Below, piece after piece: positions 46,837 through 47,694 of a stretch of DNA of 64,000 nucleotides (its first letter is position 1; each line of letters opens with the position of its first letter). The stretch is from Escherichia coli (lineage in GTDB: Bacteria > Pseudomonadota > Gammaproteobacteria > Enterobacterales > Enterobacteriaceae): NCBI RefSeq assembly GCF_003334315.1, contig NZ_QOWR01000016.1; one strand, 5' to 3'. The notes under the pieces are model-generated. The model was not told where the DNA came from. It did not search any database and was given only the letters and a program-made list of their open reading frames with translations. The translations under genes were made by a program, and so were the position numbers.

Positions 46837-46866
46837 TTGACAAAATGTGGCGTGGATCACTATAAT
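46837..46866 (+). promoter_or_regulatory. sigma70 promoter upstream of metY (-35 TTGACA, 18-bp spacer, -10 TATAAT)
   Basis: Perfect consensus hexamers TTGACA 46837-46842 and TATAAT 46861-46866. Confidence 0.5.
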
Positions 46867-46914
46867 GCCTGCAGATTTTACGTCCCGTCTCGGTACACCA
46901 AATCCCAGCAGTAT

Positions 46915-46943
46915 TTGCATTTTTTACCCAAAACGAGTAGAAT
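46915..46943 (+). promoter_or_regulatory. proximal metY promoter (-35 TTGCAT, 17-bp spacer, -10 TAGAAT)
   Basis: TTGCAT 46915-46920, TAGAAT 46938-46943, about 15 nt before the mature tRNA 5' end. Confidence 0.5.
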
Positions 46944-46958
46944 TTGCCACGTTTCAGG

Positions 46959-47035
46959 CGCGGGGTGGAGCAGCCTGGTAGCTCGTCGGGCTCATAACCC
47001 GAAGGTCGTCGGTTCAAATCCGGCCCCCGCAACCA
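46959..47035 (+). tRNA. metY: initiator tRNA-fMet (anticodon CAT)
   Basis: 77-nt CGCGGGGTGGAGCAGCCTGGTAGCTCGTCGGGCTCATAACCCGAAGGTCGTCGGTTCAAATCCGGCCCCCGCAACCA; C1-A72 mismatch and three consecutive G-C pairs in the anticodon stem are initiator hallmarks. Confidence 0.95.
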
Positions 47036-47157
47036 CTTTCCCTTAGAGTCCTTTTTCAAATATACTGTGAAGACTTCGGCCTTCGTAGTGGGATTTGAAA
47101 AAATCCTTCTGGAAAGTGCTCCAGACCGCAGTTGCGGTTATAGGGTTCAGTTATATA

Positions 47158-47183
47158 AAGCCCCGATTTATCGGGGTTTTTTG
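47158..47183 (+). terminator. intrinsic terminator downstream of metY (before rimP-nusA-infB)
   Basis: agccccga ttta tcgggg stem followed by ttttttg. Confidence 0.65.
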
Positions 47184-47241
47184 TTATCTGACTACAGAAT
47201 AACTGGGCTTTAGGCCCTTTTTTTATGTCTTGGGGGTGGGC

Positions 47242-47694
47242 TTGTCCACATTAGAGCAAAAATTAACAGAGATGATTACTGCGCCAGTTGAGGCCCTGGG
47301 TTTTGAACTGGTTGGCATCGAATTTATTCGCGGTCGCACATCCACACTGCGCATCTATATTGATAGTGAAGATGGCATCAATGTTGATGATTGTGCTGAT
47401 GTGAGCCACCAGGTAAGTGCTGTGCTGGATGTTGAAGATCCCATCACCGTTGCTTATAACCTGGAAGTCTCCTCACCGGGTCTCGATCGCCCACTGTTCA
47501 CGGCTGAACACTACGCCCGTTTTGTCGGAGAAGAGGTGACTCTGGTTCTCCGTATGGCGGTACAAAACCGTCGTAAATGGCAGGGCGTTATCAAAGCGGT
47601 AGACGGTGAAATGATCACAGTTACCGTCGAAGGTAAAGATGAAGTGTTCGCGCTGAGTAATATCCAGAAGGCGAACCTGGTTCCCCACTTTTAA
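47242..47694 (+). CDS. rimP: ribosome maturation factor RimP
   Basis: Track ORF from TTG 47230; the RimP N-terminus [17 protein letters not shown] (150 aa) requires TTG 47242 as start; GGGGGTGGG purine run just upstream; no in-frame ATG available. Confidence 0.85.

Follow-up and report, generated by a model that had tools for sequence, protein, structure and literature searches.

Gene content of the locus

The window analyzed here is a stretch of 64,000 nt from Escherichia coli (contig NZ_QOWR01000016.1 of assembly GCF_003334315.1), and the element under study is the leader of its metY-rimP-nusA-infB operon. According to RefSeq and the list of open reading frames (ORFs), argG on the minus strand is followed on the plus strand by tRNA-Met (metY), rimP, nusA (47722..49209) and infB (49234-51906). 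Sequence comparison revealed 100% identity of positions 46600-47750 with many complete E. coli genomes, and 648 of the 649 nt between the start of argG and codon 6 of rimP were the same as in E. coli K-12 MG1655. The identity of the operon is therefore certain, and the original prediction, which had recognized it from the sequence alone, was borne out by gene order, RefSeq annotation and this near-complete K-12 identity. The K-12 leader of metY-rimP(yhbC/p15a)-nusA-infB represents the same locus, with agreement in promoter cores, gene order and RefSeq annotation, and differs from the window by a single base, inside metY (47005).

The locus is an ordinary one, and its promoters P-1, P0 and P2, its terminators t1 and t2, the Rfam family RF01770 and the RefSeq TTG start of rimP are already published or curated. 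What is new here, as read from aligned sequences, is that the non-AUG start of rimP is invariant across the Enterobacterales and persists in distant Gammaproteobacteria. The comparison comprised 80 loci from other species (one genome scanned per species), and the addition of Yersinia and Xenorhabdus brought the set to 82.

The initiator tRNA gene metY

ARAGORN (tRNA-Met(cat)) and Rfam (tRNA, 61.4 bits) both placed a tRNA-Met(CAU) cloverleaf with an encoded CCA at 46959..47035 on the plus strand. The hallmarks of an initiator tRNA are present, namely a mismatch at C1xA72 and an anticodon stem with three consecutive G-C pairs: the acceptor reads CGCGGGG...CCCCGCA-ACCA with a 1:72 pair that cmscan marked as non-canonical, and GGG and CCC flank the CUCAUAA loop. 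Since the CAU anticodon occurs together with these hallmarks, the gene is metY, as the original prediction of a tRNA-fMet gene had it. The only difference in the 649 nt lies at 47005 (tRNA position 46), where the window has G (tRNAfMet1 type) and K-12 has A (tRNAfMet2). The G was present in all 81 sequences compared (the window and 80 other species), so A at this position of K-12 metY is derived; over 46993-47066, an exact match to the window was seen in 4700 of 5426 complete E. coli genomes.

In Trabulsiella guamensis (L015, ~1220-1293, equivalent to window positions 46959-47035), just the last ~14 nt of metY stood beside the rimP leader, preceded by unrelated ORFs including a 220-aa membrane protein, and sister Trabulsiella genomes had an intact tRNA. 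The arrangement looks like the outcome of an element having integrated at the metY 3' end.

Promoters of metY and rimP

Three plus-strand promoters precede the leader. The upstream promoter of metY, P-1 (TTGACA-N18-TATAAT, 46837..46866), matched the consensus at 12 of 12 positions and was the sole such match in 64 kb (chance expectation 0.03). P0 (TTGCAT-N17-TAGAAT, 46915..46943), which adjoins metY upstream, was read by the scanner as TTTGCA-N18-TAGAAT with 9/12 matches, or 8-9/12 when read as TTGCAT-N17-TAGAAT; by sequence alone it was not above chance, with 3 promoter-like sites against 3.0 expected in 2.5 kb. Conservation gave the reverse order: the 17-nt spacer of P0 was found in 80/80 species together with a conserved -35 TTGCnn and -10 TAnnAT, and the TTGACA of P-1 was kept in 58/80. 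P-1 and P0 have been mapped by primer extension, and core sequences are published for these two and for P2 (PMC6511841, Fig. 5 legend); the P-1 core maps to 46834-46877 and the P0 core to 46912-46953 with 1 substitution each, whereas the P2 core matches 47035-47076 exactly. P0 is described as the source of most RNase III-processed transcripts. Thus the two sigma70 promoters of the original prediction (46837-46866 and 46915-46943) correspond to the published P-1 and P0.

The internal promoter P2 (47037..47073) has its -10 hexamer TATACT at 47061-47066 and its transcription start site (TSS) at ~47073, the position at which the rimP 5' untranslated region (UTR) clone of Adams 2021 begins. Both P2 and the RNase III hairpin described below had been overlooked in the original prediction, and both matter for making rimP mRNA. 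Further downstream, known promoters are limited to the weak, cold-induced P3 and P4, located inside rimP and between nusA and infB, respectively (PMC6511841). The published P3 maps to 47614-47647 in distal rimP, with -35 ATCACA, -10 AAAGAT and a TSS that precedes the ATG of nusA by 75 nt.

We also observed that the 40 nt between P-1 and P0 (46870-46912; CAGATTTTACGTCCCGTCTCGGTACACCAAATCCCAGCAG) are ~90% conserved in the Enterobacteriaceae, exceeding the P-1 hexamers. The divergent region between argG and metY contains two ARG-box-like sites, at 46663-46680 and 46803-46820, with 1 and 2 mismatches to TNTGAATWWWWATTCANW, and the second lies 17 bp upstream of the -35 hexamer of P-1. ArgR reportedly couples argG and metY, and the ARG-box-like sites would fit such coupling.

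RNase III processing and tandem terminators

A long hairpin with a predicted 20-bp interrupted stem extends over 47052..47102 (plus strand), and the K-12 RNase III site 3318176 (PMC5371410) maps inside it, to window position 47072. Cleavage by RNase III frees the tRNA and leaves a P2-like 5' end on the mRNA.

Downstream of this hairpin, RF01770 (rimP leader) matched 47124-47224 with 102 bits against a gathering threshold of 47 (E = 1.5e-17, model positions 1-102 of 102), and the match ends 17 nt before the rimP start. The first hairpin of the model is t1 (AAAGCCCCGA-UUUA-UCGGGGUUUU plus a U tract, 47157..47183, plus strand), which was identified by terminator scan, Rfam and conservation. It consists of a 10-bp hairpin (47157-47180) and a U tract to ~47183, with a folding energy of -14.1 kcal/mol and a z score of -4.3, and among 66 distinct sequences its stem was nearly invariant with one-sided changes only. 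The second terminator, t2 (GGGC-loop-GCCC plus U7, 47205..47224, plus strand), is a generic rimP-leader motif that was supported by the scan, by conservation and by PMC2965389. Its 4-5-bp hairpin (47205-47217) is followed by T7 (47218-47224), its four G-C pairs were invariant in 66/66 sequences, and its folding energy of -7.4 kcal/mol (z -1.1) is marginal and no better than that of many shuffles. The strong terminator that had been predicted at 47158-47183 is thus t1, and the weaker hairpin with T7 predicted at 47205-47227 is real and is t2, except that its end coordinate took in an ATG that does not belong to the terminator.

Covariation pointed to a further, small hairpin at the leader's 5' boundary, GACCGC-AGUU-GCGGUU (47124..47139, plus strand). 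Among 66 distinct sequences it had 96.7% of cells paired and compensatory double changes at 4 of 6 pairs, the latter in Enterobacteriaceae. In the RF01770 consensus, positions 1-33 are unpaired, whereas the leader of the window instead forms this covarying hairpin. In other respects the window has the arrangement of the Gammaproteobacteria rimP leader of Naville & Gautheret 2010, in which tandem CCCg...cGGG and GGGc...gCCC hairpins carry U tracts. These authors described the tandem arrangement with an unusual sequence-conserved GGGc...gCCC stem and considered NusA the best candidate effector (PMC2965389). RF01770 also matched in Yersinia and Xenorhabdus, and all five contigs from distant Gammaproteobacteria (RimP 50-58% identical) keep the order t1-t2-rimP; a tRNA-fMet lies upstream in 4 of these 5, and the 700 nt available for L089 revealed none.

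Partial termination, as assumed in the original prediction, agrees with the literature: t1 and t2 are named there as terminators, and the main promoters lie upstream of them, yet ~6.7-kb transcripts from rimP to rbfA read through, with NusA feedback (PMC6511841). NusA represses its own operon (PMC6511841, PMC2965389), and repression is as far as these sources go. Further, a set of genes picked for reporter tests on account of 3' ends located in the 5' UTR or ORF included rimP (PMC7815308), and in Salmonella the leader released by premature termination builds up as an RNA bound by ProQ (PMC5391140). With t1 and t2 downstream of all three promoters (P-1, P0 and P2) and only 17 nt between t2 and rimP, expression of rimP from these promoters needs read-through.

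Weak terminators in leaders of nusA operons are found elsewhere too: the ylxS-nusA leader of Bacillus subtilis has one, with negative feedback by NusA. As far as the studies on NusA-stimulated weak terminators are summarized in PMC2965389 (Plumbridge 1985, Nakamura 1985), a short-stem leader terminator and NusA negative feedback are shared with the present locus. Compared with other NusA-regulated leaders, that of E. coli additionally has a tRNA gene, an RNase III site and a second terminator. A literature search for newer work on NusA autoregulation at the metY-rimP leader returned nothing past the 2010 and 2019 papers.

The start codon of rimP

RefSeq annotates rimP at 47242..47694 on the plus strand, with a UUG start and 150 aa. 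The start codon was TTG in 82/82 Enterobacterales species, and it is preceded by the Shine-Dalgarno sequence GGGGGUG (47232..47238, read from the sequence), which has 5 nt between GGGGG and UUG, was invariant in the 82 species except for GGAGGUG in 2, and was mostly paired in the predicted full-leader fold. From codon 3 on, upstream of ATG 47272, variation was confined to third positions and the peptide STLEQKLTE was constant. In the distant Gammaproteobacteria the homologous start was TTG (contigs L091 and L095) or GTG (L093) with a GGAG-type Shine-Dalgarno sequence, and in L087 and L089, where the gene caller picked an ATG, GGAG-N6-TTG was present at the homologous position. At the protein level, residues 1-150 aligned to profile positions 1-151 of 151 of the NCBIfam RimP equivalog NF000927 (265 bits, cut-off 162), Pfam PF02576 and PF17384 matched the RimP relatives, and RimP of the window was identical to PDB 7AFI chain X. 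Therefore, translation of RimP from UUG 47242 is very well supported comparatively, short of proof.

The MSTLEQ N-terminus that had been read from TTG 47242 is thus upheld by RefSeq, by TTG in 82/82 and by codon periodicity. The accompanying statement that rimP has no in-frame ATG holds only in part: no ATG yields MSTLEQ, but ATG 47272 (codon 11) and later Met codons are in frame. It had also been presented as known that a weak start codon tunes expression of the operon; as established knowledge this did not stand, being undocumented in the sources, and the UUG has a strong Shine-Dalgarno sequence. It is plausible that RimP output, compared with that of the genes downstream, is reduced or made conditional by the UUG start.

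Constraint around the start extends into the coding sequence. In rimP codons 2-10 (47245-47271) synonymous variation was suppressed (0.245 vs 0.862 bits, Mann-Whitney p = 5e-4), Leu4 was TTA in 82/82, and a predicted GUGG/CCAC mini-hairpin holds the UUG in its loop.

The gene callers disagreed on the rimP start and gave 150, 152, 154, 160 and 187-210 aa for near-identical genes, where the longest calls (187-210 aa) read through the leader in sequences missing the TAG of the t2 loop. Such disagreement is a systematic annotation hazard for rimP genes with a UUG start.

Proposed mode of expression

We consider it highly probable that the region controls the E. coli metY-rimP-nusA-infB operon from its 5' end and that it operates as follows. 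As shown by the literature and the sequence match, the sigma-70 promoters P-1 and P0 transcribe metY together with the downstream mRNA, and RNase III cuts the long hairpin 3' of the tRNA at ~47072, releasing the tRNA precursor and leaving an mRNA end near the P2 TSS at 47073. Transcripts from P-1, P0 and P2 then have to pass the tandem t1 and t2, and the read-through fraction alone expresses rimP, nusA and infB. NusA probably acts at t1/t2, and specifically at the weak t2: the minimal 4-bp GGGC/GCCC hairpin, with a sequence conserved beyond pairing, would fit a factor-assisted terminator. In the mRNAs that pass, rimP would be translated from UUG 47242 via the strong Shine-Dalgarno sequence 5 nt upstream, as indicated by the comparison of species.

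The locus is a textbook tRNA-mRNA co-transcript with RNase III processing and attenuation, in which production of an initiator tRNA is coupled to that of NusA, IF2 and a factor for 30S maturation. To this picture we add three modest points: the conserved non-AUG start, the lack of conservation of CDS115 as an ORF (see below), and a covarying hairpin outside the Rfam structure.

Alternative explanations

Several points weigh against the reading set out above. The termination efficiencies and the effect of NusA come from literature summaries. The efficiency of t2 as a terminator is uncertain because an alternative helix competes with it in thermodynamic folds of the E. coli leader. Direct protein evidence on the RimP N-terminus was looked for and not found: the TRAINSPOTTER supplements contained no rimP entry, and INRI-seq at rimP gave only an out-of-frame ATT near +20. 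Finally, among the upstream in-frame candidates (GTG 47236 and TTG 47230), GTG 47236 was invariant in all species examined, and a protein starting there is found in many 152-aa database entries (e.g. P0043, P0052; L083) and in many Yersinia and Serratia annotations. GUG generally serves no worse than UUG for initiation, and the alternative product would be a 152-aa RimP (MGLSTLEQ...) beginning two codons upstream of the UUG. The GTG, however, overlaps the Shine-Dalgarno sequence GGGGGUG and has upstream of it only U7 and AUGUCUU without a purine-rich element; the codon between GTG and TTG varies non-synonymously (GGC, GGT, GCC, GAC, GCG); L095 is without an in-frame start between t2 and TTG; and both the NCBIfam RimP equivalog and PGAP start at the TTG. 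We regard initiation at this GTG as very unlikely. ATG is the preferred start codon, and ATG 47272 (codon 11) is the only early in-frame ATG, with Met kept in 80/82 species; were it the start, the preceding 30 nt would be an untranslated leader. There is hardly any chance of this, since codons 3-9 vary at third positions only while the peptide is constant, codon 11 is ATA in Yersinia, an upstream Shine-Dalgarno sequence is missing, and distant RimP proteins retain homologous residues at their N-termini. The codon periodicity and the Yersinia ATA led us to reject ATG 47272 as the start.

Other explanations concern what the leader does. The GGGC...GCCC element of t2 could also be a protein-binding or translational operator, whose 3' arm would pair with the G-rich Shine-Dalgarno sequence in read-through mRNA and set RimP translation. 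Invariance of the stem sequence (66/66) in place of covariation, its retention across distant lineages (PMC2965389), a hairpin too weak to exceed shuffles (z -1.1) and full-leader folds that pair the GCCC arm with the GGGGG of the Shine-Dalgarno sequence (unpaired probability 0.03-0.24) all fit such an operator, but the idea derives wholly from thermodynamic predictions, minimum free energy (MFE) folds of outgroup leaders contain the plain t2 hairpin, and the U7 directly after the stem fits a terminator, which the literature has mapped as t2 (PMC6511841). On balance we find the operator unlikely, if the least unlikely of the alternatives. Another candidate is attenuation by a leader peptide, in which the 48-codon ORF at 47067-47213 (plus strand, GTG...TAG; CDS115 of PIRT-seq), which crosses t1 and stops in the t2 loop, would control read-through of t1/t2. 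The ORF was found in the window by the ORF list, and in-frame translational reporter insertions have been recovered in E. coli, for which the authors proposed a rimP-nusA leader, but validation by Western blot failed (PMC12350097). Its GTG (47067) lies upstream of both the P2 TSS (47073) and the RNase III cut (47072), and it is therefore missing from most rimP mRNAs. Among 83 species, 28 had no start in frame and start positions varied, the stop fell in the t2 loop in only 27, and 1-2-nt indels broke the frame from the GTG in most genera; the conservation of amino acids in its C-terminal half is accounted for by that of t1/t2 as RNA. CDS115 was consequently rejected as a conserved ORF, and control of read-through by its translation is, if anything, slightly less probable than the GTG start.

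The helix that competes with t2 is a predicted 14-bp pairing of 47141-47154 with 47199-47212, which surrounds t1 and ties up the t2 5' arm. This helix was present in the MFE structure of 79/83 Enterobacterales leaders and was near-isoenergetic with t2 in E. coli (-38.1 vs -36.1 kcal/mol). Its core never varies, and covariation is therefore uninformative; its distal pairs were lost in Mixta and Pantoea, and it was missing from the Yersinia, Xenorhabdus and distant folds, while outgroup MFE folds retained the plain t2 hairpin. According to these models it could serve as a built-in antiterminator.

A more speculative possibility is that the UUG and the almost invariant 60 nt around it form a conserved translational sensor, through which RimP synthesis would track initiation capacity or fidelity (IF3, IF2, fMet-tRNA). 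Besides t2 and U7, the sensor stretch would take in codons 2-10 and the Shine-Dalgarno sequence GGGGGUG, for which pairing to the 3' arm of t2 is predicted, and, if true, it would place a feedback loop inside the operon that encodes the initiator tRNA and IF2. A comparable case is infC, an autoregulated translation-factor gene with an AUU start that is sensed by IF3. Both infC and rimP have a deeply conserved non-AUG start in an operon for translation initiation or ribosome maturation; unlike the AUU of infC, however, the UUG of rimP is a canonical minor start that is not known to be sensed by any factor. Deep non-AUG conservation and extra constraint on the initiation region are apparent from the alignments, and they neither demonstrate sensing nor speak against it. 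We consider the sensor improbable, somewhat more so than the t2 operator.

Other observations at the locus

A nine-codon ORF (47225-47254, plus strand; ATG TCT TGG GGG TGG GCT TGT CCA CAT TAG) begins directly after the U7 of t2 and runs across the Shine-Dalgarno sequence and UUG of rimP in a different reading frame. Its ATG was kept in 77/82 other species, and it is without a Shine-Dalgarno sequence, predicted to be unpaired, and not present in the distant lineages L091 and L095. On the minus strand over the tRNA and leader, only spurious ORFs and sub-threshold Rfam matches (STnc430, 26.6 bits vs 47) were found, and no feature is supported on that strand.

In Yersinia (L083), Xenorhabdus (L085) and L093, secG, tRNA-Leu(GAG), tRNA-fMet and rimP are contiguous, with ~60 nt between the tRNAs. 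The window differs in that tRNA-Leu (43090-43176) is separated from metY by yhbX (43602-45260) and by argG on the minus strand (45268-46611). Since yhbX and argG intervene here and the tRNAs are contiguous elsewhere, P-1 and the control region facing argG are lineage-specific additions.

Within rimP, codons 36-53 (47347-47400) were almost without synonymous variation in the 82 Enterobacterales despite non-preferred codons, a constraint that was not seen in the distant Gammaproteobacteria. The lowest 9-codon window of this block had a mean entropy of 0.12 bits vs 0.86 for codons 12-150, Ser42 was AGT in 82/82, and the block contains the inverted repeat ATTGAT-N12-ATCAAT.

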